Shown piece by piece: positions 2,075 to 31,461 of a DNA stretch of 32,000 bases. Source of the DNA: Aeropyrum pernix K1 (GTDB lineage Archaea; Thermoproteota; Thermoprotei_A; Sulfolobales; Acidilobaceae); contig NC_000854.2 of NCBI RefSeq assembly GCF_000011125.1, forward strand, positions 960,001-992,000, read 5' to 3'. Each line of letters opens with the position of its first letter. Position 1 is the stretch's first letter. A program made the position numbers and the translations under genes. A model generated the notes under the pieces. It did not search any database. It was not told the DNA's origin and was given only the letters and a program-made list of their open reading frames with translations.

Positions 2075-2078
2075 GGGG

Positions 2079-3518
2079 TTGCCGATAGTAGCCCGCTCGA
2101 GCCGCGTCCCCTGGGTTATTAAATACAGGCCCAAGCGCGTCGAAGATGTCGTTAACCAGGACCAGGCCAAGAAGATTCTAGTACCCTGGTTCAAGGCATG
2201 GCTAGAGGGCAGGAAGCCGGATAAAAGGGCGGCCCTCCTCTACGGCCCGCCAGGCGTTGGTAAGACGAGCCTCGTGGAGGCTATAGCGAGCGAGTTCAAC
2301 CTGGAGATGATAGAGCTAAACGCCAGCGACTACAGAAGGAGGAGCGATATAGAGCGTATAGTCGGGGCCGCGTCCCGGAAGAGGAGCATGTTCAAGAGGG
2401 GCGTGGTAATACTGCTCGACGAGGTTGACGGGATAAACCCGAGAGAGGACGCGGGCGGTATAGAGGCTCTCCTCTCCGTCATAAAGACCACCGAGAACCC
2501 TATAGTCATGACCGCCAACGATCCGTGGAAAGACTTCCTCAGACCCCTCAGGGAAGTCAGCCTAATGGTGGAGTTTAGGCCTCTAACCCTGACCCACATA
2601 GTCGCGGTGCTCCAGAGGATCTGTGAGGCTGAGAGGATAGAGTGCGAGAGAGAGGCCCTACGCTACATCGCTGAGAGGAGTGAGGGCGACCTCAGGTCCG
2701 CGATAAACGACCTACAGGCAGTGGCCGAGGGCTATGGCAGAGTCACTCTAACCCTGGCCCGTGAGATAGTGAGGGGTAGGGAGAAGAGCATAGACATCTG
2801 GAGGACGCTGAACCAGGTGTTCTACAAGCCGAGGCAGGCGTGGATGGCGAGGAAGGCGGTTAGCCAGAGTGAGAAAGACTATGAGGAGCTGATAGCATGG
2901 ATAAACGACAACATACCCAGGAAGTACGGGGAGCCCTCTGACCTGTTCAGAGCCTTCGACGCCCTGGCGAGGGCGACAGTCTTCCTGGGCAGAGCCAAGT
3001 TCGGGGGCAACTGGGAGCTGCTTTCGTATGTTTTCGACCTGATGGGCCCTGGGGTCGCCTACGCTAGGATGGAGGGGGAGGTCCTCAAGACTAGGTACTC
3101 CTACCCGGAGAAGATCAGGATGATGGCTCAGCTAAGGGGGGTTAGGGAGACTAGGGAGAAGCTGGCCGAGGTCCTGGCTAAAAGACTCCTTATGAGCAGG
3201 AGAGCTGTTAAAACAGAGGTGCTACCCATACTCCACTACATCTTCCGGAGCTCCAGAGACCCTACTAAGCCTGCCATGATAGCCCTTGAGTACGGGCTAA
3301 CGGAGAAGATGGTCGAGCTTCTGGCGGGCCAGCGTAAAAGCGAGATTCTAAAGGCAATGGCCACCGTAAAGAAGGCGAGGCTAGGCGAGAAGCCCCTAGA
3401 ACCCCAGGAAGCGAAAGCCAGGAGGAGAGGGGAGAAGGCTAGTAGAGATGAGGGTAGGAAGGCGGGGAAAAGGGAGAGAAAGGGCGTAGGCCTGGACTTC
3501 TTCCTAGGTGAGCAATAA
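2079..3518 (+). CDS. rfcL: replication factor C large subunit
   Basis: TTG start 4 nt after the rfcS stop (operon). VIKYRPKRVEDVVNQ, Walker A GPPGVGKTS, Walker B ILLDEVDG. Lys/Arg/Glu-rich tail ending in a PIP-box-like GLDFFLGEQ. Confidence 0.9.
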   Translation: MPIVARSSRVPWVIKYRPKRVEDVVNQDQAKKILVPWFKAWLEGRKPDKRAALLYGPPGVGKTSLVEAIASEFNLEMIELNASDYRRRSDIERIVGAASRKRSMFKRGVVILLDEVDGINPREDAGGIEALLSVIKTTENPIVMTANDPWKDFLRPLREVSLMVEFRPLTLTHIVAVLQRICEAERIECEREALRYIAERSEGDLRSAINDLQAVAEGYGRVTLTLAREIVRGREKSIDIWRTLNQVFYKPRQAWMARKAVSQSEKDYEELIAWINDNIPRKYGEPSDLFRAFDALARATVFLGRAKFGGNWELLSYVFDLMGPGVAYARMEGEVLKTRYSYPEKIRMMAQLRGVRETREKLAEVLAKRLLMSRRAVKTEVLPILHYIFRSSRDPTKPAMIALEYGLTEKMVELLAGQRKSEILKAMATVKKARLGEKPLEPQEAKARRRGEKASRDEGRKAGKRERKGVGLDFFLGEQ

Positions 3519-3668
3519 CGGCTAGGCTGCAATGCTGAAAAGGCTTCGGAGAATCAATTGAGAACTGGGCCAGCCCTCCTCCCCGCCCCGCCGACGGAGG
3601 GCGGTTGCCCGCGTCGATGAGGTGGGGAGCGCACGGGGCTGGCCATAGCTAGGTGACCCCGGGGCTTC

Positions 3669-8192: not shown

Positions 8193-9059
8193 CTAGCGAG
8201 CCCATGGGAGCCTGGCCTCTAGAACATCCCTGAGGCCCGATTTAACGAACACTGCATAGCTCCTGCCGGACGAGTCGAAGGTGTGGTCTACGGCTATGTA
8301 GCCCTTTGATAGTAGGCCCGTTATGGCTTTTCTCGTCGCCATCCTCCACCTCCTGGCGGCATCGATCCCCAGCTCCTCCCTGACCACTGTTATGCTTCTG
8401 GGGAGTGCAACCAGCGCGACCTCAGCATCCCCCCATGCCTCCCGTGGACGGGGATAGCCGTCGTCGCCGTGCGCCAGAGCCTCAACCGCGCCATACACGG
8501 TCTTCAGCTCCTCGGCTGGTGGAGGGCGTAATCTGCCCTCGAGCTTCAGCCCGACTAGCCTGGAGTCTAGCCACCATTCCGCGACAACCCTGTCACTACC
8601 CAGCCCCCTGTTGATCTCGTCAGTCATCTCACCGTAGTAGTTCACCTTGTACACCCTGTATACCGCGCCGAGCTTGGCCAGGTTGAACCTAGTGTTAAGG
8701 CTCTGAAGCGGGTCGAAGGTCCACTTGGCCAGCGACACGCCCTCCCTCAGGACCTCCTCCCTCTGCCTAGCCTTAAGAGCGAACCCGACGCCACGGTACT
8801 TATAGCCCTCCTCGACGCCGGTGGCGTGACTATAGAAGTACCTGCCCTCCCCGCAGCCGACGAACCATCCGTAGCTAGCCCCCACCATCCTACCCCCGAC
8901 AAAAGCACCTAGCACCAGGCCGCCGTTGTCAACCAGCGCCCGCAGTATGTGGGGCGCCACAACCTCCCTATAATCCCTGCTACCCCAAGCCCTAGCATGC
9001 ACCTCAACAGCCTCCTCAAGCTCTACAGGGTCGCTAAGCCTCCTCACAACGACCTCCAC
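8193..9059 (-). CDS. GNAT-superfamily-like protein of unknown function (COG3375-type)
   Basis: 288 aa. Acetyltransferase-like core (GGRMVGASYGW...YSHATGVEEGYKYRGVGFALKARQRE) followed by WTFDPLQSLNTRFNLAKLGA, as I recall for this uncharacterised family. Not verified by search. Confidence 0.6.
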   Translation of the reverse strand: MEVVVRRLSDPVELEEAVEVHARAWGSRDYREVVAPHILRALVDNGGLVLGAFVGGRMVGASYGWFVGCGEGRYFYSHATGVEEGYKYRGVGFALKARQREEVLREGVSLAKWTFDPLQSLNTRFNLAKLGAVYRVYKVNYYGEMTDEINRGLGSDRVVAEWWLDSRLVGLKLEGRLRPPPAEELKTVYGAVEALAHGDDGYPRPREAWGDAEVALVALPRSITVVREELGIDAARRWRMATRKAITGLLSKGYIAVDHTFDSSGRSYAVFVKSGLRDVLEARLPWAR

Positions 9060-10492: not shown

Positions 10493-11164
10493 TTGAAGCC
10501 CGTTCTCGCCGTTAACATGAAGACCTACAGCTCAGCCTTCGGAGAGGGGGCTAGACGCCTGGCCAGAGATGCGGCGCGGGTAGCGCGGGAGGTGGATGTC
10601 AGGGTTATACTTGTGGCGCCATTGATAAACGCCTCCTCCCTGGCTGGGGTGTATGGCGACGTTTACATCCAGCACGCCGACCCCGTCGATCTGGGGGCTC
10701 ACACGGGCTACACCCCCGTCGAGGCCGCTGCGGCAGAGGGGTTGAGGGGGGTTATGGTTAACCACAGCGAGCATAAGGTAACCTACAGGCACCTACAGGC
10801 TGTGGTCTCGAAGGCTAGGAGCCTGGGGCTAGAGGTCCTCGCGTGCGCCGACACTCCTGAGGAAGCCGCTGCGGCTGCGCTCCTAAGGCCATCCATGGTC
10901 GCCCTCGAGCCGCCCGAGCTCATAGGTACCGGTATACCCGTTTCACAGGCAAAACCCGAGGTCATAACCCGGGGTGTAGAGGCAGTAGCCCGTGTAGCAC
11001 CCGGAGTTGCCGTCCTAGCAGGCGCGGGCATAACTGCGGGGGAGGATGCTAGGCGCGCTGTAGAGCTCGGCGCCCAGGGGGTGCTCGTGGCTAGCGCGGT
11101 GATGAAAGCCAAGGACCCCCATGGGAAGATGCTGGAGCTTGCTGAAGCTATGGCCAAGCCCTAA
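10493..11164 (+). CDS. tpiA: triosephosphate isomerase (archaeal short type)
   Basis: 223 aa, TTG start. [16 protein letters not shown], catalytic [11 protein letters not shown]-terminal GVLVASAV. Confidence 0.9.
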
Positions 11165-11169
11165 GGGGG

Positions 11170-12489
11170 CTAGGCCTCCTGACTGGCTTCCCCGCCTCTA
11201 GCCTCCGTGTCTAGCCTGGACTCCAGCATCGAAGCCAACCTAGGGAGGTTCTCGAGGGCCAGAGTCGCTAGGGCCTCCTCGAGCCTCCTCCTATCGGCCT
11301 CCACGCCCATGAGCCACAGCCTGTGCTCAACCTCGTCTAGAGGCGTGTCCACGACCTTCTCAAAATATGGCTCGAGCTCTGAGGCCAGCTCCCCGACGGG
11401 CTCCCTGCTGCCTATCTCAACCCCGTCTATAACAGCTACCCCTTCAGACTCCAAGTCCCGCCTAACCTCGCCGGGTACGGGTGTCCTCGAAACCAGCACC
11501 AGGAGATCAGGCTTATAAACCTCCCTGTAAAGGAGGACTAGCCTATGCTCCCTCACCCTAACACCCTCCCTCCTCTCCTCCCTCCTGCCAGGCTCTATCC
11601 CTAGAATGTCGGCCAGCCCTGTCTTGAGGCCCTCGAACCACCTGGCATACCACTCCTCCGCAGAAAACCTCTTGACAAGCGGCCCCTTGAGGTACCTAAC
11701 CCTCTCGTACCAGTCCTCTAGCTCTTTGAACTCCACCACGACGCTGGGCCTCTTAATCCTGGGCCTTCCATCCGCCCACTCAACCATGTCTAGAACCCTC
11801 CCACCGTAGATTATCATGTCGGGCCTTAGGCTAGTGTAGAGGCTCCAGGCCCTCTCCAGCCCCCTCGAGTCACCCCACCCTATAGGCCTGGGTGCTTCTA
11901 GGTAGAAGCTGGCCTCCCTAGCCCCGGGCAGCCTGATAACAGCATTGGCCGGTATACTCCCGCCCCTCTGCCTCCCCTGCCTCTCTATATGGAGGAACCC
12001 GTGGTCCGGGTAGACTATGGAGGCGCCCCTACGGCCATACTCGGCTACAAGCGCCAGGAAGACCCAGTGCTGGTAGATGCTTCTCAGGTTCGTGGCGAGG
12101 CTTGTGTTCAAGGCGCTTCTAGCCTTGGCCAAGAACTCCTCTGGCGATAGCTTCCCCCGGGCGAGGTCGATTGAATACTGGAAAAGCTTCTTAGCAAGGT
12201 GGCCCCGGGGGTCTTCTATGAAGCTCCTGAGCTCCTTGGGGAGGAGGACCCCCCTCAGGCCGGCGGCCCGCCGGGCTGTCTCCAACTCGTCCTTGAAGAT
12301 GTGAACCCACTCCACGGCCCTCCCAAGAGCCTCTCCCAGAATGCCATCAACAACCCTAAGCCTGAGGCTCTCGAGCAGCTCTCTAGCGCCATCCCTGAAA
12401 ACCGGCCTCCCCTCCACAAGCTCAACGCTACCCCTAACAGCCTCCAGCACATCTCTGGGGAGGCCAGCGTCGAGCGTGCTGGAAGCCAA
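11170..12489 (-). CDS. uncharacterised protein with a PD-(D/E)xK nuclease-like core
   Basis: 439 aa, same strand as tmcA and 51 nt downstream of it. LRPD(224)MIIYGG ... VVVE(253)FK(255)EL, preceded by a helix (IYQHWVFLALVAEYG) and beta-strands, fits a restriction-endonuclease-like fold. Confidence 0.7.
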   Translation of the reverse strand: MASSTLDAGLPRDVLEAVRGSVELVEGRPVFRDGARELLESLRLRVVDGILGEALGRAVEWVHIFKDELETARRAAGLRGVLLPKELRSFIEDPRGHLAKKLFQYSIDLARGKLSPEEFLAKARSALNTSLATNLRSIYQHWVFLALVAEYGRRGASIVYPDHGFLHIERQGRQRGGSIPANAVIRLPGAREASFYLEAPRPIGWGDSRGLERAWSLYTSLRPDMIIYGGRVLDMVEWADGRPRIKRPSVVVEFKELEDWYERVRYLKGPLVKRFSAEEWYARWFEGLKTGLADILGIEPGRREERREGVRVREHRLVLLYREVYKPDLLVLVSRTPVPGEVRRDLESEGVAVIDGVEIGSREPVGELASELEPYFEKVVDTPLDEVEHRLWLMGVEADRRRLEEALATLALENLPRLASMLESRLDTEARGGEASQEA

Positions 12490-17714: not shown

Positions 17715-17832
17715 TTATAACGTACAGCCCGAGGTGTATCCCTTCGAGGTGATAGCTTCACTTTAATTCTGTATGCTGGGGTCTCTAGCTGCTGAGAAGC
17801 GTTCAGTCTTCCAGACCTCCTGTTGTGTAAGG

Positions 17833-17838
17833 TATAAA
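17833..17838 (+). promoter_or_regulatory. TATA box candidate for the ABC transporter operon
   Basis: TATAAA in ggtataaagg lies 40 nt upstream of the in-frame GTG at 17878. It argues against the upstream starts at 17773 and 17845. Confidence 0.4.
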
Positions 17839-17877
17839 GGGTGTATGTTAGGGGTTGGTCCTACTGTCTGGGGGGTT

Positions 17878-18789
17878 GTGTGGGGTTTGGGCTGTACTGT
17901 GGAGGCACGGGGTTTACGGAAGAGGTTCGGCGGGAGGACTGCAGTGGCTGGCGTCTCGTTTAGTGTCGGGGATGGTGAGAGGGCTTGTATCATGGGTCCT
18001 AACGGGAGCGGTAAGACGACTCTCCTCAGGATGGTGTCCGGGGTGCTGAGGCCCTCCGGGGGGAGTGTGCGTGTCTGCGGCTACGATGTGTGGGGCGACG
18101 GGTGGCGGGAGGCCAGGGGGCTTATAGGATTCGCCCCTCAGGACCCGCCTATGGCTAGGAGGATGACGGGCGCCGAGTATATTACGGTGGTTGGCGGCCT
18201 CCTGGGCCTTAGCCCCGGAGTTGCAAGGAGGGAGGCTAGGAGGGTTCTCGAGATGCTCGGGTTTGAGGATGTGCTTGGGAGGGTTGTGGCTAGGCTTAGC
18301 GGCGGGCAGAGGAGGGCTCTCGGCATAGCCCTGGCTCTCGCGTCGAACCCTGAGGTTGTCGTGCTAGACGAGCCTGGTAGCGGGCTTGACGTGAGGGCCA
18401 GGGAGTCCCTATGGGCCTCACTCAGGAAGGCCTTCAAGGGGAGGACCGTGTTATTCAGCAGCCACGACCCCCAGGAGGCTGAAGCGGAGTCGGACAGGGT
18501 ACTCATAATGCACAGGGGTAGGCTAGCTGCATGGGGGAAGCCTAGGGAGCTTATTCAACGATACGCACCCAAGCCCAGGGTTAGAGTGTGGGCGGATAGG
18601 GCGCCGGATGGGCTGGAGCCCGTCCACACTGGCCCCGGGTTCTCGGACTACCTTATAGAGGCTCCGGGGGACGTCGCGAGGATAGCCTCTGCATACAGCG
18701 GGGCGGGGATACTTGTTGAGAGGATAGAGGTCCTCAAGCCCAGCCTGAGGGAGGTTTTCTTCGCGGTAACGGGGGAGGAGATGGATTGA
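17878..18789 (+). CDS. ABC transporter ATP-binding protein (ABC-2 exporter type)
   Basis: ORF open from 17773; the GTG at 17878 gives (M)WGLGCTVEARGLRKRFGG. Walker A GPNGSGKTT, signature LSGGQRR, Walker B VVVLDEPGSGLD, H-loop SSHD. Confidence 0.9.
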   Translation: MWGLGCTVEARGLRKRFGGRTAVAGVSFSVGDGERACIMGPNGSGKTTLLRMVSGVLRPSGGSVRVCGYDVWGDGWREARGLIGFAPQDPPMARRMTGAEYITVVGGLLGLSPGVARREARRVLEMLGFEDVLGRVVARLSGGQRRALGIALALASNPEVVVLDEPGSGLDVRARESLWASLRKAFKGRTVLFSSHDPQEAEAESDRVLIMHRGRLAAWGKPRELIQRYAPKPRVRVWADRAPDGLEPVHTGPGFSDYLIEAPGDVARIASAYSGAGILVERIEVLKPSLREVFFAVTGEEMD

Positions 18790-19948: not shown

Positions 19949-20908
19949 CTACGCCCTCTCTGGGGTGCGCCTCCTCCGGGAGCCCGAGCCGGCCTCCTGG
20001 AGGATGTATGCGAGCGCTGCTATAACCTCTTCTATGAGCACCGTACCCTTGTACCTCCCATCCCTGTCAACCACTATCGCAGCCTCAGACTCGTACGTGA
20101 GCATCTTCTCCAGCATGTCGTCAACCCCCTCATCCTCCCCCACAACTGGCGCTTCCATATAGGCCAGCGTGTGGGCGGGGGTGGTTGAGAGGTCTACGCC
20201 CTCCTCTATAGCCTCCTCGAGCGAGTCTGGCGTTATAACACCTATGGGCCTCCCATCACCGTCTACCACGGGGACGACTGGTGCTCCCTTCTCCATGAGC
20301 TTCAACACACTCTCGGCCGGTGTGTCGTGCCTCACCGGCTTTATACCGCCGTCTGCAAGCTGCCCCGCGGTTATAGGGGGTTCGACGCCCTTCTCCCTCA
20401 ATATTGCCAGAAGCGCCTCGGCGTCCACAATCTCCCTCGGCGGCCTGTGGAGGAGCTGGCTCGAGTATATGGAGGTGTTGCCCGAGACTTCCCTAGCGAC
20501 TATCGATGCCAGGAGGCTCGGGGGGATTAGGAGGTAGTTGTTGCCCATCTCCGCCACCATGATACTCGTGGCTAGGGGGACTTTGGCTGCGGCTGCGAAG
20601 AAGGCTGACATGCCCAGGTAGGCGTAGGCCGCCGCGGGGAGGGGGGCCTGGGCCACCTCCTGTATCAGGGCGTAGAACGAAAGGCCTAGGAGTGCCCCCC
20701 CAAGGAGCCCCGGCGCGAAGACCCCGCCGCTCCCGCCGGAGCCTATGGAGAGGCTTGTCGCCGCTATCTTGAGGAGGCCGGCCGTAGCCAGGACTGTAAA
20801 CGCCCACAGGCCAGCCTCGCCAACGGGGATCCAGGAGACGGGTTCTCCCGATAGCACGGCGGCCAGCACGCCCCTGCCGCTTCCCGCGACGAACGGCGCA
20901 GCGTACAC
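19949..20908 (-). CDS. ClC chloride channel, C-terminal fragment (GxFxP motif plus two CBS domains)
   Basis: GSGGSGGVFAPGLLGGA (ClC GxFxP motif), further TM helices, then a CBS pair (ITAGQLADGGIKPVRHDTPAESVLKLM... / VVGEDEGVDDMLEKML...IVVDRDGRYKGTV). This is the continuation of ORF 20764..21840 in another frame. Confidence 0.8.
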   Translation of the reverse strand: MYAAPFVAGSGRGVLAAVLSGEPVSWIPVGEAGLWAFTVLATAGLLKIAATSLSIGSGGSGGVFAPGLLGGALLGLSFYALIQEVAQAPLPAAAYAYLGMSAFFAAAAKVPLATSIMVAEMGNNYLLIPPSLLASIVAREVSGNTSIYSSQLLHRPPREIVDAEALLAILREKGVEPPITAGQLADGGIKPVRHDTPAESVLKLMEKGAPVVPVVDGDGRPIGVITPDSLEEAIEEGVDLSTTPAHTLAYMEAPVVGEDEGVDDMLEKMLTYESEAAIVVDRDGRYKGTVLIEEVIAALAYILQEAGSGSRRRRTPERA

Positions 20909-21840
20909 CAGGAGGGAGAGGCCAGCCGCCCCAGCACCGGCCTTAGGGTACGCGGCAGGCCCAGGGACTCCAGCCTTCTAAAGCCTCTCTCCGACTCTCT
21001 GAAAATTCTCGCGTAGAGGTAGCCGAAGGGCGCGAGGAAGGCGCCGAGGAGTATGTAGCTTGCTATGGACTGGGGGCTGTAGAAGTCTGAGCCGTCGACG
21101 ACGAGCCTCGGCAGGGGCGGCTCGTAGCCCGCCACCGTGGCTAGGGTGTAGGCTGTTATGGAGGATACGAAGGCGGGGACGAGGGCCTGCACCTCCAGGT
21201 CCCTCTTGTAGAGGACCTCGGCGGCGAAGAAGGCGCTGCCGAGGGGTGAGTGGAATAGGGCTGAGAGGGCCCCCGACATGCCCGCGACCAGGGCTACCCT
21301 CCTGTCCTCTATCCTAAGCCTGAGAAGCCTAGCGATGGTGGAGCCTATCGAGGCGCCTATCTGGACGCTGGGCCCTTCTACACCGCCGCTCCCGCCCGTG
21401 CCCACGAGTATGGAGGAGGCGACAGCCTTGACAACCCCCGTCCTGAAAGGTATCTGGGCAGCCCTCCTGTGGAAAGCCTTCACAGCAGCATCCGTACCGT
21501 GGCCCTCAGCCTCCGGCGAGAACCTGTAGACTATCAGGGAGCTCACCAGCGCACCCCCGACTATCGCCAGGGGTGCGAGGAGGCCAGCCCCTCCTGCTCT
21601 AGACAGGACTAGGCCCAAGTCGCCTCCGGAAGCCTGGCCCGCCAGGAGGTAAGCCGTAAGCCCTGCCACCACGCCCAGTAGCCAGTAGAACGCCAGGGCC
21701 GCCGCCGCAGACGCCACTCCTATGGCGACGCCGAGCACGATCCACTTCTCCGCATACGCGGCCCTAGCCAAGAGGTGGGATAAACTGTAGCTGAGCCAGC
21801 CTGCAGCACGCCTGACCCCCTGCAACGATCCTCCACTCAT
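20764..21840 (-). CDS. ClC chloride channel, N-terminal fragment (reading frame lost near 20930)
   Basis: TM-rich. GTGGSGGVEGPSVQIGASIGS (ClC GSGIPE-type motif) and GMSGALSALFHSPLGSAFFAAEVL. The last ~55 codons (RLASPSWCTLRRSSREAAG...) look out of frame. Confidence 0.8.
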   Translation of the reverse strand: MSGGSLQGVRRAAGWLSYSLSHLLARAAYAEKWIVLGVAIGVASAAAALAFYWLLGVVAGLTAYLLAGQASGGDLGLVLSRAGGAGLLAPLAIVGGALVSSLIVYRFSPEAEGHGTDAAVKAFHRRAAQIPFRTGVVKAVASSILVGTGGSGGVEGPSVQIGASIGSTIARLLRLRIEDRRVALVAGMSGALSALFHSPLGSAFFAAEVLYKRDLEVQALVPAFVSSITAYTLATVAGYEPPLPRLVVDGSDFYSPQSIASYILLGAFLAPFGYLYARIFRESERGFRRLESLGLPRTLRPVLGRLASPSWCTLRRSSREAAGACWPPCYRENPSPGSPLARLACGRLQSWLRPASSR

Positions 21841-22114: not shown

Positions 22115-23074
22115 TTGGCACGTGGTGGTCTCGCGTTGAAGGACAGGTTTAAAGCCGCGGTTCTCTACGGCTGGAGGGAGCCGTTCAGGCTCGAGGAGTA
22201 CGAGGTGGAGCCCCCTGAAGGCTGGGTCCCTGTCGAGGTTAGGAGTGTTGGCATGTGCGGCAGGGATCTCGTTGTCTGGAAGGGAGGGTTCCCCAACCTT
22301 AAGCCCCCGCTGGTGCTGGGCCACGAGGTCTTCGGCCTCCACGATGGGAGGCCGGTCTCGGTCTATCCCGCCATAGCCGTCCCGGGGTGCCCGGACTGCC
22401 CTCCCTCGATACTGGGGGAGAACCTACCGGGGGGGTACGCCGAGAGGGTCTACGTGCCCCGGGAGAACCTCATACCCCTCCCCGACACGGATTTCAACAA
22501 GTACGCCGCCGCGACGTGCGGCGTGGCTACAATGATGCACGCTGCCAGCGTCGCCAGCGTGAGGCCAGGGGAGAGGGTGCTTGTGACCGGGGCCTCCGGG
22601 GGTGTAGCGCTCCACGGGATACAGTACCTCCAGCTCCTTGGGGCTGAGGTTGTGGCCTACACTAGGAGTAGGGAGAAGGCCAGGGTGCTCGAGGAGGAGC
22701 TTGGCGTCGAGGCTGTGACAAGCCTAGACTTCTACAGGGAGCGGGGCAGGGTTGATGTGGTCATGGAGACGGTGGGGGCGCCCACGATAAACGAGAGCAT
22801 GAGAGCCCTCCGCCCACGCGGCCGCCTAGTCCTAATAGGCAACATAACCGGGGAGCCAGTAACAATAAAGCGTCCAGCACTGCTCGTCATGAGAGAGATA
22901 ACAATATCAGGCACAGCAGCATTCACACGCAAAGAATGGGAGGCAGCCATAAAAACAATAGCCAAGGGAGGAGTCAAACCCTTCTACAAAGCATACAGAC
23001 TAGACCAGATAAACAACGCCCTAAAAGAAGCACTACAAGGCGCCAGAATCGGAAGAATAGTAATAAACCCCTAG
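22115..23074 (+). CDS. zinc-type alcohol dehydrogenase / MDR superfamily oxidoreductase
   Basis: 319 aa, TTG start. GMCGRD and GHEVFG zinc-site motifs, Rossmann VLVTGASGGVALHGIQ, typical C-terminus GRIVINP. Codon usage switches abruptly at about 22827 (see findings). Confidence 0.9.
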   Translation: MARGGLALKDRFKAAVLYGWREPFRLEEYEVEPPEGWVPVEVRSVGMCGRDLVVWKGGFPNLKPPLVLGHEVFGLHDGRPVSVYPAIAVPGCPDCPPSILGENLPGGYAERVYVPRENLIPLPDTDFNKYAAATCGVATMMHAASVASVRPGERVLVTGASGGVALHGIQYLQLLGAEVVAYTRSREKARVLEEELGVEAVTSLDFYRERGRVDVVMETVGAPTINESMRALRPRGRLVLIGNITGEPVTIKRPALLVMREITISGTAAFTRKEWEAAIKTIAKGGVKPFYKAYRLDQINNALKEALQGARIGRIVINP

Positions 23075-23180
23075 AAACCGGAAAGCCGAAACCACACAAC
23101 CAAACGCAAAACCAACAATCAACGCAGAAAGAAAAAGCCAAGCCAGACCAACCCGATTCACAGCCCACACAACACAGTAA
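23075..23180 (+). repeat. A/C-only low-complexity tract
   Basis: By hand count, only 4 T and 14 G in 106 nt (aaaccggaaagccgaaaccacacaaccaaacgcaaaaccaacaatcaacgcagaaag...), directly after the ADH stop. It continues the A/C skew of the ADH 3' end. Confidence 0.7.
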
Positions 23181-23830
23181 CATATAGCAGAGGAATTCTC
23201 GGTATTGCTTGTTTTCTTCTTAACAACAATTTAACAACAATATTGAAGTAATGCTCTTCAGCAGAAAGAAGCTTAATCATGTTTTCGGTAAAGATATGCA
23301 ATAAACATATACAAGCGCTCGCATATGCAATCACACCTTAAGTTAAGTTACTTTACAACAGATGTAATGGCACTGCATGCCTGAATCTTAAGAACTTCCA
23401 AAGATTGGCGTATAGCTAGGATTCTCAACTACTAACTAAATTTTTCATCTATTGTTTGCACGTAAAGGAATGCGATAGGTGCAAGTGTACTCTGACAGAA
23501 TGTTCCATTAACATTACCTTAGTAATCATAGACATTTATGATTAAGAGCATATATCGGCTATGTACTCTTTGTGGAGCCTCTCCTAATTGTTAAAAATTA
23601 AAAAGTAGCAAAGTAGAGTGAGATACAAAGTGCTTAAAGGGAGAGGGCCCGTGAAACCATAAGCTGATTTGCAAGTCGGCTTCTGTTCCCATCAGCAGAC
23701 CCCAATGCTTCACAGCAACTGTTAAATTATGCCTTGTAGATTAAGTCTAGCAGTTATAACATCTATTTTGAGTTGAAGCTGGATCGAGAAAATTTAAATA
23801 CTGTATAATAAATATATGTTAATGGTATCG

Positions 23831-23840
23831 ATTAATATAT
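23831..23840 (+). promoter_or_regulatory. TATA-like box plus SD-like GGTGA upstream of the island nuclease gene
   Basis: attaatatat lies ~30 nt upstream of the ATG at 23868. GGTGA at 23857..23861 lies 6 nt before the ATG. Confidence 0.35.
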
Positions 23841-23867
23841 GAAACTTTTTGAGTTGGGTGAATTCAA

Positions 23868-24707
23868 ATGAAATCCGAAATCGATAAGGATTTATGTATT
23901 TTAAATATCATATCAACAATACACAAAATAAAAAATAATATAAACAAATTCTATAATAAATTATCGCGCAATGAAGCATTGACAAGATATGTACTAATTG
24001 ATCCCTTCCTTCGAAGCATAGGCTGGGACCTGGGAAACCCCAAAGAAGTCATTCCAGAGTTTAGTACTGAGGTAGGTGTTCCAGACTATGCCCTTTTACA
24101 AGATGATAAATTATTCATGTTTATTGAGGCTAAAGCTCTTGGTAAAATAAAGGATGTTGATCAGGTTAAAGTCGTATCATATGCAGTCACAAAAGGTGTT
24201 CAATATCTTACGATAACTGATGGAGACTCATGGATAGTATATGACTTGTACCGTGAAGGAAATATTGAACAGAAACAAATATTAACGTGGAGTATGTCCA
24301 GCGACGATGCTGTTACTATAGCTATTAAGGCATTATTCATAGCTAACCTAAAACCCCCCATTCTATCTCTCTACAGAAGAGAAAGACAGCTTTCGGAGCT
24401 AGTCACTAAATCTACTGTAATTAAACTTGAACATGATAAAAATGTTCTAAGGAAAAAGTTTAAGGGGCCTATTACGTCAAAAACTGCTAGAGATATCATA
24501 TTAACGATATTGAAATCCGAAAAGAGACCTTTAAGCGTCAAAGAAATATTCGAACGCGCCCAAATAATGTTCGAGCCTACTGAAGAGGATAAGAAAGTCC
24601 TCTCTAATGGAGAAGTGAGATGGCAAAATAGAATAAGATGGGAACTTTCAAAGCTGGCTAAGGAAGGGCTAATAAAAAGAGTAAAAGAAGGCGTTTACAA
24701 GGCTTAA
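23868..24707 (+). CDS. HsdR-N-type PD-(D/E)xK nuclease fused to a C-terminal Mrr_N-like winged-helix domain
   Basis: 279 aa, AT-rich codons. NEALTRYVLIDPFLRSIGWD (HsdR_N signature helix), PD73 ... E87-A-K89, TITDGDSWIVYD. The C-terminal SVKEIFERAQ...SNGEVRWQNRIRWELSKLAKEGLIKRVKEGVYKA matches the Mrr N-terminal wHTH pattern. Confidence 0.85.
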   Translation: MKSEIDKDLCILNIISTIHKIKNNINKFYNKLSRNEALTRYVLIDPFLRSIGWDLGNPKEVIPEFSTEVGVPDYALLQDDKLFMFIEAKALGKIKDVDQVKVVSYAVTKGVQYLTITDGDSWIVYDLYREGNIEQKQILTWSMSSDDAVTIAIKALFIANLKPPILSLYRRERQLSELVTKSTVIKLEHDKNVLRKKFKGPITSKTARDIILTILKSEKRPLSVKEIFERAQIMFEPTEEDKKVLSNGEVRWQNRIRWELSKLAKEGLIKRVKEGVYKA

Positions 24708-24943
24708 TGCTAATACTTAAATGGATTATCAAATCTAATCTAATTTAAATTATTTAGTTAAATGAGCGATAAAACTAAACCTAAACATGGAGACGTTAAA
24801 ATGGGTTTGATACAATTATCCGAGGAGAATCATATTTAGTCAACTGAGATGCTAAACCCTCAACACTGTTAATTAGTGTATTTTTGATGCGGAGAGTCAG
24901 TGAGTGTGTTAGGTGGAAACTGTTATTTAATCTCCATGTAACG

Positions 24944-24955
24944 TATTATATATTA
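24944..24955 (+). promoter_or_regulatory. TATA-like box upstream of the putative antitoxin ORF
   Basis: tattatatatta lies 19-30 nt upstream of the GTG at 24974. GGTGG at 24962..24966 could be an SD. Confidence 0.35.
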
Positions 24956-24973
24956 GCAGACGGTGGTTTGATA

Positions 24974-25168
24974 GTGTCTTCGAAAAAGTCTAAGGTTAAG
25001 GTTGAAGTTGAGGTTGAAGTTCCCGAAGGCGATGATGAAGGCGTTTACAGGGAGGAATTTCGGAGAGAGCTAGCTAAGAGGATATTAAACGTAATGCTTG
25101 ACAAGGACGTGGAGCCAGCTAAGCGGGCTGTTGCCAAGACTTTGCGCGAGAAGGGCGGGGAGGGATAG
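24974..25168 (+). CDS. putative antitoxin partner of RelE (family not recognised)
   Basis: ORF open from 24884, but the first 30 codons look non-coding, so the GTG at 24974 is preferred (64 aa). It lies directly upstream (46 nt) and co-oriented with the RelE-like toxin. KVKVEVEVEV repeat, then an acidic/helical part (EEFRRELAKRILNVMLDK). Confidence 0.5.
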   Translation: MSSKKSKVKVEVEVEVPEGDDEGVYREEFRRELAKRILNVMLDKDVEPAKRAVAKTLREKGGEG

Positions 25169-25214
25169 CCCCGGCTACTAGCTGTATGCAATTACTTTCT
25201 GGTGTTAGGAAAGA

Positions 25215-25499
25215 TTGACAGAGGTCTATATAGAGAGTTCTGCAAAACGTGATTTAAAGAGGCTGCCAAAGCATATTGTCCAGTGGGTGTTAAACACTGT
25301 TGAGGAACTCGAGGAGAACCCGTTTATCGGCGAGAGGCTACATCTTCCAGCAAGCCTACATGGCTTGTACTGCTTTAAGCTAAGGCGAGGAGACTACCGG
25401 CTAGTCTACTGCTACGTTCCAAATCGAGACACAGTATATATCATCGCCGTTGGACACCGAGGCGAGATATACGAGAAGTTTCGAAGACGAATAAAATAA
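25215..25499 (+). CDS. relE: type II toxin, RelE/ParE (RelE/StbE) family mRNA interferase
   Basis: 94 aa, TTG start. Family pattern YIESSAKRDLKRLPKHIVQWVLNTVEELEENPFIGERL...LRRGDYRLVYCYVPNRDTVYIIAVGHRGEIY. Confidence 0.9.
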   Translation: MTEVYIESSAKRDLKRLPKHIVQWVLNTVEELEENPFIGERLHLPASLHGLYCFKLRRGDYRLVYCYVPNRDTVYIIAVGHRGEIYEKFRRRIK

Positions 25500-25686
25500 C
25501 GCACTGAATCCAATTATAAACATTAGTGATAAGTGATAATTTTAAATTTAAATTCTGCAGGATAGAACTCCGGGAGGTTGGTTATTATAGAGGCCTATCT
25601 GTGCAAGAGCTGTTCTTTCTGTGCTTCATATTCTTTTTCGGGTATAGAGTGCCAAAGAATCAAGCAGATATAGTTGAGGCAAACGC

Positions 25687-25929
25687 CTAATGCCCTAGGA
25701 GCCTCCAGAGGGTTACCCTGCTTACCCCCGCAAGTTCTACTACTTGTTTTCTACCGTGCTTTTCTACTACTCGTCTGAGGATACGGTATCGGGCGTCCTC
25801 TCTAAGCCTTGCCGGGTCAACAGCCTCCCACCACTCCCGCCTATCAGGCATGACTACCACTCCTGATGTTTCACCATGCATCATGAAACTGAAACATTCG
25901 GGGTTATATATTTCTAACCATCGCTTCAC
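25687..25929 (-). CDS. small HTH-containing ORF, possibly a truncated remnant (integrase or regulator N-terminus?)
   Basis: 80 aa from a GTG only 20 nt downstream of the tRNA-Gly 3' end on the same strand. It ends just after a helix-turn-helix (VVELAGVSRVTLWRLLGH*). Intermediate GC. Confidence 0.45.
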   Translation of the reverse strand: MKRWLEIYNPECFSFMMHGETSGVVVMPDRREWWEAVDPARLREDARYRILRRVVEKHGRKQVVELAGVSRVTLWRLLGH

Positions 25930-25948
25930 GATGATGAAGAGGTGTTTG

Positions 25949-26027
25949 TGGTGCGGCCGCCGGGATTTGAACCCGGGACCACCGGCTTGGGAGGCCGGCG
26001 TCCTAGTCCAGGCTAGACGACGGCCGC
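25949..26027 (-). tRNA. tRNA-Gly (anticodon CCC), CCA encoded, no intron
   Basis: Hand-folded cloverleaf on the minus strand: acceptor GCGGCCG/CGGCCGC, D-arm GTCT-AGCCTGGACTA-GGAC, anticodon arm CCGGC-CTCCCAA-GCCGG, variable TGGTC, T-arm CCGGG-TTCAAAT-CCCGG, discriminator A, CCA. Confidence 0.95.
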
Positions 26028-26157
26028 GCCATACTATTTTCTAGTCTATCCTGGGGGGCTTAAAGGTTAGCGCTGTTACCTGTGGGTGAGTGTTATATCC
26101 TCCCGTTAACCATGTATCTCCATCTGGCCCGCGACTCCCCCGGGTGGGGGGTGTTGG

Positions 26158-27150
26158 GTGAGCGGGCCTGGGACGTATTCACCGCCTTCTTCCCGGTTAC
26201 AATATCTGGGGTGCTGTGCTGGGGTGGCTGGTGCTAGGCTTGTTCCGGGGCCTCTTGGGGGGAGGTTTCCCTTTAGCAACTGTGTGTTGGTTGAGGATGC
26301 GGGGTTCAAGGTTCTCGTGGATACGGGGTGTGAGCCCTGGGAGCGTGGGCTGGTGGATGTTGATGTAGTGGTGTTCACTCACTTCCACCCAGACCATATC
26401 AGGGGGTTCCATAGGCTGCGGGCTGGCCGGGTGGCTGCCCCGGAGGGTGAGGAGCCCTATGCTGGGAGGCTTGAGAGGCTTGCCCTCAGGTTTGCCGGCG
26501 AGAGGTGGAGGGAGTGGATCAGCATGGCTAGGCTGGTTATGGATCTGGAAGGCGTGCCGGAGCCGGGGGAGTATTTCAGGCCTGGGGAGGACCTCTGCTT
26601 CCGGGGGGTCTGCATTAAGACCTACCCCGCTAGGGGGCACCTCCAGACCCACACCCTGCTCGAGCTGCCCGGGGGGCTTGTCCACCTTGTGGATATCGAT
26701 TTGACAGGGTTCGGCCCATGGTACGGCAACCCTGAGGCGAGCCCCGAGCTCTTCCTACTCGACATTGAGGCTGCCGCGGAGATGGAGGCCAGGGGGTATC
26801 TTTCAGCCCACAAGGACAGGGTCTACTCTAGGGGTGAGGGTGTGGAGGCTCTCGCCAGGTTTGCGGGGAGGCTGGTGGAGCAGGCTGAGGGTGTGTATAA
26901 GGCCTTGGAGGCCGCTGGGAGGCCCCTCTGGCCCTGGGAGCTCACCGGGAGGGGTATAATATACAGGAGGTATCTGGAGGGTATGGAGGCCATTATGAGC
27001 TACTTCGAGGGCGTGATGATAGAGAAGCTCCTCGGCCTCCTAGGCCTATGGGGCTGCACCCGGAAGACCCCCGGGGGGTATGTTGCCAGGGACTGCCACC
27101 TCGGGGTTATCAAGGATAGGATAACGAGGAACATACTATCCCTAGCCTAA
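26158..27150 (+). CDS. metallo-beta-lactamase fold hydrolase
   Basis: HxHxDH motif in VVFTHFHPDHIRG, preceded by NCVLVEDAGFKVLVDTG. The true start is probably the in-frame GTG at 26224 ((M)AGARLVPGP...), because the first 22 codons look non-coding. Confidence 0.85.
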   Translation: MSGPGTYSPPSSRLQYLGCCAGVAGARLVPGPLGGRFPFSNCVLVEDAGFKVLVDTGCEPWERGLVDVDVVVFTHFHPDHIRGFHRLRAGRVAAPEGEEPYAGRLERLALRFAGERWREWISMARLVMDLEGVPEPGEYFRPGEDLCFRGVCIKTYPARGHLQTHTLLELPGGLVHLVDIDLTGFGPWYGNPEASPELFLLDIEAAAEMEARGYLSAHKDRVYSRGEGVEALARFAGRLVEQAEGVYKALEAAGRPLWPWELTGRGIIYRRYLEGMEAIMSYFEGVMIEKLLGLLGLWGCTRKTPGGYVARDCHLGVIKDRITRNILSLA

Positions 27151-27438: not shown

Positions 27439-27491
27439 AACCGCGCCTGGGAGAAGTAGCGTCCCCGCGAAACTCTAAGGCTACCTCCTTT

Positions 27492-27953
27492 TTGTCTTTC
27501 CGTGTAGACTTCGATTCTGGGGGTTGTTTGGCGAGGGTGAGGTATGAGAGGGCCCCGGACGTGTGCCGGGCCGCTGAGGTCCTCGTAGACGCTCTCGGAC
27601 TAGACTATATCGACGTCTCCAGGGTGTACTGCGTGAGGAGCTGGGGGAGTAGGGGGAGGGCTTATGCGAGGATCTACGGGACGCCGGGGGCTTGGGCTGC
27701 GGCCCTCGGCTATAACCCCGGCTACGTTATAGAGGTTGTCTCGGAGAAGTTCGACCCTCTGCCACTGGAGGAGAAGGTTAAGGTCGTCATACATGAGCTG
27801 CTCCACATACCCCGCACCTTCAGCGGCGGCCTCAGGGCCCATGGCCCCCTGGTTAACGGGAGGAGGGTTGCAGCGCTGTACAGGAGGGTCAGGGGTGATG
27901 CCAGGGTTATGGGCATCCTCCGCGAAGCCTTGGATGGAGGCCCTCAAGAATAG
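27492..27953 (+). CDS. predicted zinc metallopeptidase (HExxH), COG4900-like
   Basis: 153 aa, TTG start. VKVVIHELLHIPRTFSGGLRAHG contains HELLH plus a downstream His. Family assignment is from memory only. Confidence 0.65.
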   Translation: MSFRVDFDSGGCLARVRYERAPDVCRAAEVLVDALGLDYIDVSRVYCVRSWGSRGRAYARIYGTPGAWAAALGYNPGYVIEVVSEKFDPLPLEEKVKVVIHELLHIPRTFSGGLRAHGPLVNGRRVAALYRRVRGDARVMGILREALDGGPQE

Positions 27954-30987: not shown

Positions 30988-31461
30988 CTAGCCTCCAACC
31001 CTGAAGCCAGCTTCGACCAGTATTCGCTCCCCACTATAGACGTCTTCAAGAATTTTCACGATCTTATACTCCCCGGGATAGAAGTCAAAAGATTCTGGTT
31101 TAAAAACTGCTACAACCTTAGTCTCCCCATGCTTTATAACGTCATTAGCGACGGGGAAAACAGGGTTAAACTCGGGATCCGCCACCCATGCCCCGCCGTC
31201 CCACGTGTACAAGGTCCACCCGAAGCGGTACTCCAGCGTTCGACCGCTGTTATTCACAAGTTTGACTGTTACAGTGTCGCCTTCACCATAAACTTTCTTA
31301 TCCGGCTCCAGAAAAACAGACTCACCCCCCATATCCTCCGACGGGAGATTCATGCTTGTTAATGCGAGGTAGGTCGAGGGCACCGCTACAAGAATACCCA
31401 GGAGAAAACCGGCCAGAACAAATTTAAACATAACACCTGCACAACCGGGAACTGTACCCAC
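30988..31461 (-). CDS. N-terminally membrane-anchored protein with a beta-sandwich (Ig-like/BsuPI-like) ectodomain
   Basis: 157 aa from GTG 31461 (alternative ATG at 31431). TM FKFVLAGFLLGILVAVPSTYLAL, then an all-beta-looking domain (KKVYGEGDTVTVKLVNNSGRTLEYRFGWTLYTWDGGAWV). GC lower than its neighbours. Confidence 0.6.
   Translation of the reverse strand: MGTVPGCAGVMFKFVLAGFLLGILVAVPSTYLALTSMNLPSEDMGGESVFLEPDKKVYGEGDTVTVKLVNNSGRTLEYRFGWTLYTWDGGAWVADPEFNPVFPVANDVIKHGETKVVAVFKPESFDFYPGEYKIVKILEDVYSGERILVEAGFRVGG

Follow-up and report, generated by a model that had tools for sequence, protein, structure and literature searches.

Results

An Abrupt Change in Composition at the 3′ End of an ADH Gene. 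The DNA analyzed here, a window of 32,000 nt of the Aeropyrum pernix K1 chromosome, contains on its plus strand a gene for a Zn-dependent (MDR) alcohol dehydrogenase (ADH), whose longest ORF starts at 22115 and whose product carries the Pfam domains ADH_N, ADH_zinc_N, and ADH_zinc_N_2. The gene is followed by an A/C-rich noncoding tail, by the remnant of a CRISPR repeat, and by a low-GC island encoding an Mrr_N-like protein (23868–24707), a 64-aa protein, and a ParE-family toxin (25215–25499). Beyond the island lie a tRNA-Gly gene and a gene for a metallo-beta-lactamase (MBL)-fold protein (CDS 26223–27150) (Table 1).

Table 1. Features of the ADH locus of A. pernix K1 (positions in the window)
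Feature	Position	Strand	Remarks
Zn-dependent (MDR) alcohol dehydrogenase gene (ADH)	22136..23074	+	312 aa; matches BAA80556.2/Q9YBP2
Skewed tract, coding part (last 90 codons of ADH)	22802..23074	+	third positions A48 C31 G10 T1
Noncoding A/C tail	23075..23176	+	conserved to 23176 in A. pernix L001; recognizably homologous in A. camini
Oligo-T run on the CRISPR-sense strand	23126..23137	-	AGAAAGAAAAAG on the plus strand; kept in K1 and A. camini, T6 in L001
Degenerate trailer-end CRISPR repeat remnant	23196..23219	-	17/24 positions; positional homologue of the A. camini repeat at L087 11053-11076
K1-specific low-GC (about 35%) island	23222..25929		from comparison of K1 with L001 and with A. 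camini
tRNA-Gly(CCC)	25949..26027	-	directly upstream of the CRISPR leader in A. camini and L001
Mirror-image G/T-rich tract	26028..26380	+	intergenic region and 5′ end of the MBL-fold gene

A likelihood fit on the third codon positions along the long ADH ORF placed a change-point at codon 229 (22802), with a flat likelihood between 22787 and 22830. This confirms the abrupt in-gene switch to A/C-ending codons described in a first-pass annotation of the sequence, which had set it at about 22827, within the flat range. Upstream of the change-point, third positions read A15 C87 G97 T30 (n = 229), as against the counts given in Table 1 for the codons downstream (n = 90). Codons ending in A or C make up 100/222 of the 5′ part and 79/90 of the tract (Fisher p = 8e-13), and those ending in A 14/222 and 48/90, respectively (p = 2e-19). 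When synonymous codons were redrawn for the 90 residues of the tract from K1 codon usage (100,000 draws), the mean number of A/C-ending codons was 45.2 (SD 3.9, maximum 64), compared with 79 observed (z = 8.6). The onset is sharp, third-position A+C rising from 0.33–0.53 to 0.87–1.0 inside 15 codons, and no obvious oligo-T terminator lies at this point of the gene.

The skew continues beyond the stop codon, where the 106 nt from 23075 to 23180 hold A52 C36 G14 T4, in exact agreement with the 4 T and 14 G counted earlier. Coding tract and tail together (375 bp) are more skewed than all 1,369 background windows of 600 bp, taken from the rest of the window and from six control loci. A sequencing artifact is ruled out by the recurrence of the tract in independent data: apart from the K1 genome record, it is carried by a further A. 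pernix assembly, by two assemblies of A. camini, and by 12 independent Logan contigs.

The A+C fraction is 0.88 at the third positions of the tract and 0.83 in the noncoding tail, and 0.54 at positions 1 and 2 of the tract, the last being a small shift relative to the 0.42–0.52 of outgroup orthologues. Across the change-point, the third-position odds of G to A fall from 6.5 to 0.21 (a purine shift of ~31-fold) and those of T to C from 0.34 to 0.03 (a pyrimidine shift of ~11-fold). The suggestion that G→A and T→C transitions accumulated on the plus strand, equivalent to deamination of C and A on the minus strand, thus holds as a pattern, in that both transitions are shifted, mainly at silent and noncoding sites, with deamination as a candidate cause.

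The Skewed Tract Is Shared by Aeropyrum Genomes With and Without the Island. The change in composition is abrupt and adjoins a low-GC island, and the first-pass annotation had therefore offered a mosaic gene as one explanation: the 3′ end of ADH would be a xenologous copy carried on the island, whose boundary would then lie inside a functional gene. We compared K1 with A. pernix L001, which carries a different insert, and with A. camini SY1, which has no island and in which about 780 bp separate ADH from the MBL-fold gene. The tract is present in both, with an identical onset 90 codons before the stop. The 3′ end of ADH is likewise A/C-ending in A. camini (third-position G+T of 0.03 in the last 40 codons), and across all three genomes this value is 0.03–0.05, far outside the range of 0.23–0.80 of all other gene segments compared. 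The same A/C-rich 3′ end in a relative without the island, which the annotation had named as evidence against an island-linked reading, is thus what was found.

The position of the variable region points the same way. Homology between K1 and L001 spans the entire tract through to 23176, and that between K1 and A. camini extends as far as 23221, so that strain-specific DNA begins downstream of the tail in either comparison and away from the compositional breakpoint; a boundary inside the gene is not supported. Moreover, the island itself (GC 35%, no strand skew) is unlike the tract in composition, and the C-terminal 90 residues of ADH are as near to A. camini, and have the same closest outgroups, as the rest of the protein, as judged by sequence identity. 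No integrase was found at the locus, and no att-type direct repeats of the tRNA were found at the ends of the island. Because the tract is shared with island-free A. camini and with the differently inserted L001, the mosaic-gene reading, to which we give hardly any credence, is refuted. The extent of homology indicates that the skewed tract is native Aeropyrum DNA, lying on the conserved side of the island boundary, and within it the plus strand stays near a two-letter {A,C} alphabet as far as the protein permits.

In the nearest non-Aeropyrum ADH orthologues (L002 and L003), the tract is missing and the 3′ ends are G/T-rich. Between K1 and A. camini, synonymous differences amount to 0.31 per codon, equally in the tract and in the 5′ part, and A↔C differences make up 16/25 inside the tract vs. 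2/63 outside. At the protein level, 81/90 residues of the tract and 203/222 of the 5′ part are identical, a divergence of 10% and 8.6%, respectively. Since synonymous divergence is equal in and outside the tract while A↔C exchanges dominate inside, these comparisons indicate that the tract is old and still actively maintained after speciation. Only four synonymous differences separate K1 and L001 in the tract, all involving G or T at sites where A. camini has A or C, and just one of them is confidently polarized. The tail changes more rapidly than the genome does on average: indels separate the two A. pernix strains, and alignment to A. camini is poor.

The sharp boundary, identical in both species, would also be expected from one ancient episode of hypermutation or repair in the ancestor shared by A. 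pernix and A. camini, with drift ever since. We regard this as very unlikely, given that a synonymous divergence of 31% should have brought decay toward G/C-ending usage, yet 64% of the differences are A↔C, third-position G+T remains at its very low value in the last 40 codons of all three genomes, and the synonymous rate in the tract is not lower than elsewhere. Such an event would also have hit nonsynonymous sites, but the protein is equally conserved in the tract and elsewhere.

The Tail Abuts an Orphan CRISPR Mini-Array. In A. camini, ADH is followed by the A/C tail, two 24-nt repeats with one spacer, a 325-bp leader, tRNA-Gly, and the MBL-fold gene, in this order, and the tail abuts the trailer end of what is an orphan CRISPR mini-array: within 10 kb of the locus, gene calling yielded no cas genes in A. 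camini, L001, or K1. In L001, the locus holds 2+2 repeats, whose spacers measure 42 and 38 nt. K1 retains just one repeat remnant, the island having displaced about 300 bp of leader along with the leader-proximal repeat and the spacer. The repeat (consensus CTCTTAGTCTTGCTTGTTTTCAAC, sense GTTGAAAACAAGCAAGACTAAGAG) is a genuine CRISPR repeat, as identical repeats form arrays of 7–71 units elsewhere. The leader–repeat junction (the repeat and the first ~25 nt of the leader) is conserved in two related loci (L092 and L097), leaders are similar among loci (z 2–4.5), and in another locus (L098) the sense of the repeat agrees with the direction of the cas operon. Degenerate repeats lie on the side of the array that faces ADH. 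Given the genuine repeat, the conserved leader junction, and these degenerate repeats, the array is oriented for crRNA synthesis toward ADH.

About 60 nt beyond the last repeat, toward ADH, a conserved T5/T6 run on the CRISPR-sense strand might serve to terminate transcripts that exit the array, archaeal transcription termination being dependent on oligo-T. Two other roles of the tail were considered and rejected. As the relic leader of a former plus-sense array, it bears no likeness to five leaders beyond composition, and its complementarity to the leader, which would form a long stem around the array, is limited to matches of up to 12 nt, at chance level.

The Skew Is Mirrored Across the Array and Recurs at Related CRISPR Loci. 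On the other side of the array, third-position G+T reaches 0.78–0.80 in the first 40 codons of the MBL-fold gene, and polarity is thereby mirrored, the plus strand being A/C-rich on the left and G/T-rich on the right. The outward-running strand is also G/T-rich, for about 600–1000 bp, in six of seven related CRISPR loci with the same repeat family in other Desulfurococcales. These loci are of type I-D, with a DEAD-box Cas3-like helicase, and their skewed flanks include the 3′ ends of cas1 and cas6, genes that have A/C-rich sense strands though they are transcribed toward the array; in cas1 of L097, third positions read A156 C117 G46 T10, and A+C reaches 0.93–1.0 adjoining the array.

The skew is strongest by leader ends and at the one-spacer mini-array and is weak at the far end of long arrays, the trailer flanks of the long arrays L089 and L092 showing none. 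L103 (GC 41%) has no skew at all. As a further case of a convergent gene at a trailer end, L104 is ambiguous, its cas1 being followed by decayed repeats in the same orientation. Tracts that are similar but shorter also exist at sites with no CRISPR array, such as the surroundings of tRNA-Ala in L004.

With the sense strand A/C-rich in ADH and cas1 and G/T-rich in the MBL-fold gene, the skew tracks the side of the array and not gene orientation, and we therefore rejected the genes' own transcription and translational selection as its source. A general promoter-proximal G/T skew of Aeropyrum genes is too weak on average to suffice: the ordinary strand asymmetry at gene 5′ ends corresponds to a mean third-position G+T of ~0.54 vs. 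0.50 (averaged per-gene values). An overlapping antisense or alternative-frame gene was rejected as well, the extents of the antisense ORFs differing among K1, L001, and A. camini; these ORFs exist because the G/T-rich strand has no stop codons. As for a skew switch at a replication origin, which we regard as less likely, no Orc1/Cdc6 or WhiP initiator gene was called within about 10 kb of the locus, and the K1 chromosome has only two replication origins, tied to Orc1-1 and WhiP (PMC10769869).

Discussion

A Strand-Specific Transition Bias as the Candidate Cause. What we observe are the tract itself, its age and maintenance, where it lies with respect to the array, the mirrored polarity, and the recurrence at related CRISPR loci. 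The reading that we put forward for them, with about an even chance of being correct, is a local and long-lasting strand-specific transition bias combined with purifying selection, the minus strand being single-stranded during read-through transcription of the CRISPR array. CRISPR transcription would run out of the short array, antisense into ADH, and the minus strand, as its nontemplate strand, would often be single-stranded, such that exposed C and A would deaminate at about 90–95 °C. The resulting C→T and A→G changes, read as G→A and T→C on the plus strand, would push the latter toward an {A,C} alphabet, while purifying selection would keep the C terminus of ADH as silent sites shift. In K1, the leader and promoter have since given way to the island, and the K1 tract would therefore be a recent relic. 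In this model, we infer the mutational nature of the bias, the part played by deamination, and transcription as the source of single-strandedness.

In agreement with deamination, the purine shift is larger than the pyrimidine shift, which is the order expected from the faster deamination of cytosine relative to adenine. Inside crenarchaeal CRISPR arrays, transcription start sites in both sense and antisense direction are documented (PMC10883916). Several observations nevertheless count against transcription. The conserved T5/T6 run should halt part of the read-through before ADH, the sharp onset of the skew coincides with no obvious oligo-T terminator, and the skew on the leader side requires outward (antisense) transcription, which is hypothetical in these organisms. 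The unskewed trailer flanks of L089 and L092, the unskewed L103, and the shorter tracts away from CRISPR arrays likewise count against this model. In addition, given that the ordinary 5′-end asymmetry of Aeropyrum genes is weak, the CRISPR promoter would have to be exceptional.

The same mutational footprint might instead arise from single-stranded DNA produced by DNA processing at the array. Free 3′-OH positions follow from the published chemistry of spacer integration, and either Cas1–Cas2 integration nicks bearing such ends at the leader-proximal repeat, or the loading of a Cas3-type 3′→5′ helicase-nuclease, would lead to removal of the array-directed strand, leaving its complement exposed to heat deamination until resynthesis. 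A single cause would thereby cover the mirrored polarity on both sides of the array and account for the A/C-rich sense strands of cas1 and cas6; the peak of the effect by leader ends and at the one-spacer mini-array, its weakness at the far end of long arrays, and the DEAD-box Cas3-like helicase of the related type I-D loci are also in its favor. However, spacer integration is rare relative to transcription, making it doubtful that it could sustain a 10–30-fold bias. Moreover, no cas genes were called within 10 kb of the orphan Aeropyrum mini-array, the abrupt edge of the skew in ADH is unlike a distribution of resection lengths, and such intermediates are hypothetical in archaea. We consider DNA processing an improbable source, though one to be kept in mind.

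Composition alone does not separate mutation bias from selection on nucleotide content. The A/C-rich plus strand, corresponding to a G/U-rich antisense RNA, could itself be a functional element, such as an unstructured 3′ region of the ADH mRNA, a series of oligo-T terminators acting on CRISPR transcripts, or a region bound by a protein specific for strand or composition. The {A,C} alphabet is retained in both species despite 31% synonymous divergence, the onset is sharp and conserved, and the conserved A-run in the tail is an oligo-T run on the opposite strand, all of which speaks for such a function. Yet the tail is fast-evolving, with its indels and its poor alignment to A. camini, and has no homology to CRISPR leaders beyond composition; an Rfam search of both strands at the gathering threshold returned tRNA only, with no family across the tract, and the extents of the antisense ORFs are not conserved. 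A terminator role needs T-runs, not avoidance of G, and a single function hardly accounts for a shared polarity that extends over up to 1 kb in genes as unrelated as ADH, cas1, cas6, and the MBL-fold gene. Selection on composition thus appears to us a minor contender, on a par with DNA processing.

A transition bias at ADH might be an instance of something wider. We tentatively propose, as a possibility that falls short of probable, that the CRISPR arrays of hyperthermophilic Desulfurococcales leave on their flanks, over up to about 1 kb, a mirrored and strand-specific footprint of deamination, and that this footprint outlasts the array, as in K1. Array activity, whether outward transcription or the processing of integration or Cas3 intermediates, would leave the outward-running strand single-stranded at about 90 °C or more, and the footprint would rewrite the synonymous sites of any gene located there, be it ADH, cas1, cas6, or the MBL-fold gene. 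If this is true, the footprint would be a fossil record of the position, orientation, and activity of a CRISPR array. The CRISPR link points to an inexpensive marker, readable from sequence alone, of how arrays are oriented, of where arrays once stood, and perhaps of their activity in adaptation or transcription, and it would make the in vivo fate of DNA around a CRISPR leader testable in archaea. If mutational, the tract would rank among the strongest local strand asymmetries known from cellular chromosomes and would be a natural readout of single-stranded DNA sites in an organism living near 95 °C, and it would mean that noncoding activity nearby can outweigh the usual codon preferences of a conserved enzyme gene with little change to the protein. 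For annotation, the locus is a warning that codon-usage breaks alone are insufficient for calling horizontal transfer or island borders.

Comparison with Known Systems. The locus resembles integrative elements at the 3′ ends of tRNA or protein genes in having a variable island between a gene 3′ end and a tRNA gene. It differs from them in lacking both an integrase and an att duplication of the tRNA, and in that the replacement-like ADH end is present without the island.

The mini-array resembles leader-bearing CRISPR arrays of the type I-D-associated repeat family GTTGAAAACAAGCAAGACTAAGAG, with 24-nt repeats and 36–42-nt spacers in A. camini and L001, a degenerate trailer repeat in both, and a conserved leader–repeat junction. 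Unlike these arrays, that of Aeropyrum is an orphan: cas genes are missing next to it, it holds a single spacer, and in K1 it is reduced to one degenerate repeat. In a literature search, a compositional footprint on flanking genes was not found in published descriptions of CRISPR loci.

Transcription-associated strand asymmetry, known from E. coli genes and from the 5′ ends of mammalian genes, consists of C→T and A→G changes, and hence of a G+T excess, on the nontemplate strand. The ADH tract shows the same pair of transitions on one strand, with the G+T excess on the presumed nontemplate strand of CRISPR transcription, and the effect is likewise strongest near the presumed start and found mainly at silent sites. 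It is, however, far stronger, with almost no third-position G or T, extends over ~375 bp with a sharp edge, and runs antisense to a protein gene as part of a mirrored pattern at a CRISPR array, the transcript itself being hypothetical.

In vertebrate mitochondrial DNA, C→T and A→G changes on the heavy strand scale with the time spent single-stranded, and the gradient is attributed to deamination of the strand that is long single-stranded. This effect is replicon-wide and driven by replication, whereas the ADH patch is local in a two-origin chromosome (PMC10769869). Common to both are A/C-rich, G-poor third positions on the sense strand of genes whose proteins are conserved.

Results

The 3′ end of the ADH gene is confined largely to A- and C-ending codons

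ORF 22115/22136-23074 of A. pernix K1 encodes a Zn-dependent alcohol dehydrogenase (ADH; BAA80556.2). The first-pass annotation had proposed an abrupt switch to A/C-ending codons towards the end of this gene, and change-point analysis confirmed it, placing the switch at 22802 with a likelihood that stays flat until ~22830. Third positions comprise A15 C87 G97 T30 upstream of the switch and A48 C31 G10 T1 downstream (A+C before versus after, Fisher p = 8e-13), and the 106-nt tail past the stop codon comprises A52 C36 G14 T4; the base counts first given for the gene end and tail held on recount. The switch far exceeds chance: resampling of synonymous codons according to K1 usage gave z = 8.6 for the excess of A/C-ending codons, and the skew of the 375-bp tract lies above that of all 1369 background windows. 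In the three Aeropyrum loci, third-position G+T is 0.03-0.05 in the last 40 ADH codons and ranges from 0.23 to 0.80 across all other gene segments examined. Positions 1 and 2 of the tract show a mild shift only (A+C 0.52-0.54 versus 0.42-0.52 in outgroups), Ile, Thr, Lys and Asn being more frequent and Val, Phe and Met less so.

The tract is present in genomes lacking the K1 island

The switch had also been read as a mosaic 3′ end acquired with the neighboring low-GC island, whose boundary would then lie inside ADH. In another A. pernix strain (GCA_004323575, locus L001), which carries a different 2.7-kb insert, homology to K1 spans the whole tract and the tail to 23176 and restarts at 25947, two bases past tRNA-Gly. 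The island is missing altogether from A. camini SY1 (L087), where ~780 bp separate ADH from a metallo-beta-lactamase (MBL)-fold gene; ADH there also ends in A/C-ending codons, if anything more extremely. In all three genomes the switch is abrupt and sits at one position, 90 codons before the stop, where third-position A+C rises from 0.33-0.53 to 0.87-1.0. We found no sign of a foreign C-terminus in the ADH protein, either in its identity to A. camini (81/90 residues in the tract, 203/222 upstream) or in its nearest outgroups, both parts having the same ones. The tract in island-free A. camini and in the differently inserted L001, the outcome that had been set at first pass as its refutation, refutes the mosaic origin, and the lack of a foreign C-terminus likewise counts against it.

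Outside the genus, the tract is missing from the closest orthologues (Acidilobaceae and Desulfurococcales MAGs, 74-77% identical), whose 3′ ends are rich in G and T. In the nearest of these loci (L002, 10940-10970, and the L003 equivalent), a short spacer rich in G and T separates ADH from a downstream short-chain dehydrogenase gene of the same orientation, and the whole ADH has G/T-rich third positions (A+C 0.23-0.40), a tendency opposite to that in Aeropyrum. Another A. camini assembly (GCA_001316065, L088 1245-2188) has ADH called as two ORFs (195 and 119 aa), split upstream of the tract, possibly by a draft-assembly frameshift or by real gene decay. Elsewhere in the window, a ClC-type channel gene with CBS domains (19949-21840, minus strand) forms two ORFs in K1 (235 and 358 aa), which overlap in their raw form, and is unsplit in A. 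camini, with 598 aa (L087 7815-9611); a frameshift, pseudogenization or sequencing error accounts for the K1 split.

An orphan CRISPR array lies beside ADH

In A. camini, the A/C tail is followed by two 24-nt repeats (CTCTTAGTCTTGCTTGTTTTCAAC) flanking a single 36-nt spacer, then by 325 bp rich in G and T on the plus strand, a minus-strand tRNA-Gly(CCC), and a G/T-rich intergenic region leading into the MBL-fold gene, whose 5′ part favors G/T-ending codons. That this is a true CRISPR repeat is evident from its occurrence elsewhere: metagenome contigs contain arrays of 7 to 16 exact copies, the related locus L101 contains arrays of 22-71 copies when up to 6 mismatches are allowed, and in Desulfurococcales MAGs the repeat sits after type I-D cas operons (Csc1, Csc2, DEAD-box helicase, Cas4-like, Cas2, Cas1). 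Conservation of the leader-repeat junction among other arrays, degeneracy of the repeats facing ADH and co-orientation of the repeat with cas genes together locate the leader in the interval from the array to tRNA-Gly; the crRNA sense is therefore the minus strand, pointing at ADH.

A. camini and the other A. pernix strain retain at this site a spacer, repeat and leader absent from K1, whose island is specific to that strain and contains no integrase. L001 has four repeats, the two pairs being separated by a 2.2-kb insert (1445-3646) with four minus-strand ORFs (48, 330, 83 and 177 aa), none with a Pfam match, which suggests insertion or recombination of a mobile element or plasmid fragment into the array.

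Features of the K1 array site and cas1/cas6 genes of type I-D loci in Desulfurococcales MAGs, whose strong preference for A/C-ending codons rises towards the neighboring CRISPR array
Feature	Locus	Coordinates	Remarks
Trailer repeat remnant	K1	23196-23219	17/24 match; sole repeat retained
Island	K1	23222-25929	35% GC; in place of spacer, other repeat and leader
Mrr_N/HSDR_N-like protein	K1 island	23868-24707	
64-aa ORF	K1 island	24974-25168	
ParE-family toxin	K1 island	25215-25499	
cas1/cas6	L097	245-1234	A/C-ending
cas1/cas6	L098	8884-9873	A/C-ending
cas1/cas6	L101	10001-10981; 1380-2228	A/C-ending
cas1/cas6	L104	10001-10969	A/C-ending

The sign of the skew depends on the side of the array

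To either side of the Aeropyrum array, G and T are enriched on the strand that runs 5′ to 3′ outward from it. The same sign is found upstream of the related arrays in L097/L098, L100, L101 (two arrays) and L104, where sense-strand A+C over 600 bp is 0.635-0.678, within the top 0.2-2.3% of the two-sided background and identical in sign in all cases. The skew rewrites synonymous sites of array-flanking genes: third positions of L097 cas1 comprise A156 C117 G46 T10, with A+C at 0.93-1.0 in the array-proximal third and a decay across the following genes, and L101 cas6 and cas1 and L104 cas1 show gradients towards their own arrays. The sense strands of ADH and cas1 are A/C-rich and that of the MBL-fold gene is G/T-rich, which excludes the genes' own transcription as the cause; the skew instead tracks where a gene lies with respect to the array.

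Skew is absent from L103 (GC 41%), including its cas genes, and slight at the far (trailer) ends of long arrays, and the geometry of L104 is ambiguous. Right after L104 cas1, a very A/C-rich segment (10970-11390) contains decayed repeat copies (CCTCAAAACAAGCAAAAC..., ~62-nt spacing) that give the appearance of having lost G and T; beyond it lies an oppositely oriented array of the same repeat family. Comparable, mostly shorter tracts also occur away from arrays. A 423-bp tract in L004 (5908-6330, plus strand G/T-rich) surrounds a minus-strand tRNA-Ala and also covers the 3′ end of an MFS-like transporter gene in the same orientation, A/C-rich on its sense strand, with no CRISPR repeat evident there. 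Given these exceptions, the CRISPR association is strong, not exclusive. Tracts of 60-150 bp with a G/T-rich sense strand also occur in the window (17818-17937, 12303-12453, 8844-8924, 27486-27552 and 31386-31447), at or just upstream of gene 5′ ends (ABC ATPase and others); on average, 5′-end asymmetry in Aeropyrum genes is weak.

The tract is maintained

Synonymous third-position differences between K1 and A. camini amount to 0.31 per conserved codon, equally inside and outside the tract. A/C exchanges make up 16/25 of them inside and 2/63 outside, where differences are of the C/G, C/T, G/T and A/G types. Both lineages have thus kept substituting while confined to {A,C}, which implies rapid conversion (G->A, T->C) or removal of each G or T that arises; the tract is maintained and is not the fossil of one event. 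The odds at third positions shift more for purines (~31-fold) than for pyrimidines (~11-fold), the order expected from deamination chemistry. Selection on nucleotide composition, which on sequence evidence is possible and which we rank third among the candidate causes, is disfavored as an explanation, since the tail evolves fast, the pattern is common to unrelated genes, and a search for an RNA family, a conserved antisense ORF or leader homology found none.

Discussion

We propose that C->T and A->G changes keep occurring in excess on the outward-running strand and are filtered by selection on the protein; any process keeping this strand single-stranded would yield the observed polarity. Among possible causes, we give first rank to transcription leaving the array. 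During pre-crRNA synthesis the minus strand would serve as non-template strand across the ADH tract, which, with a one-spacer array, would lie ~100-500 nt from the presumed promoter, for which a TTAAAAA box ~50 nt upstream of the first repeat is a candidate. Within crenarchaeal arrays, transcription starts in both the sense and the antisense direction have been documented (PMC10883916). Against this model, there is no obvious terminator at the sharp onset, the tail contains a conserved oligo-T run that precedes ADH, and ordinary promoter-proximal asymmetry in Aeropyrum is weak. It also requires antisense transcription for the leader-side skew, here hypothetical. We rank second DNA processing at the array, in which 3′-OH ends from spacer integration or a 3′->5′ Cas3-type helicase-nuclease would strip the inward strand, and which would yield the mirror symmetry from a single cause.

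The initial reading of the skew as one-strand transitions is thus supported as a pattern, and we extend it: the tract bias is ancient, ongoing and CRISPR-adjacent, and the kind of asymmetry is itself already known. Transcription-associated asymmetry and the heavy-strand gradient of mitochondrial DNA both classically bear this signature, with G+T enriched on the exposed strand and third positions of the opposite strand rich in A and C and poor in G. We found no prior description of such an array-flanking footprint in the open-access literature, and what appears to be new is its intensity, its small size and sharp edge, its antisense location in a conserved enzyme gene, its mirror arrangement around a CRISPR array, and its recurrence at related arrays.
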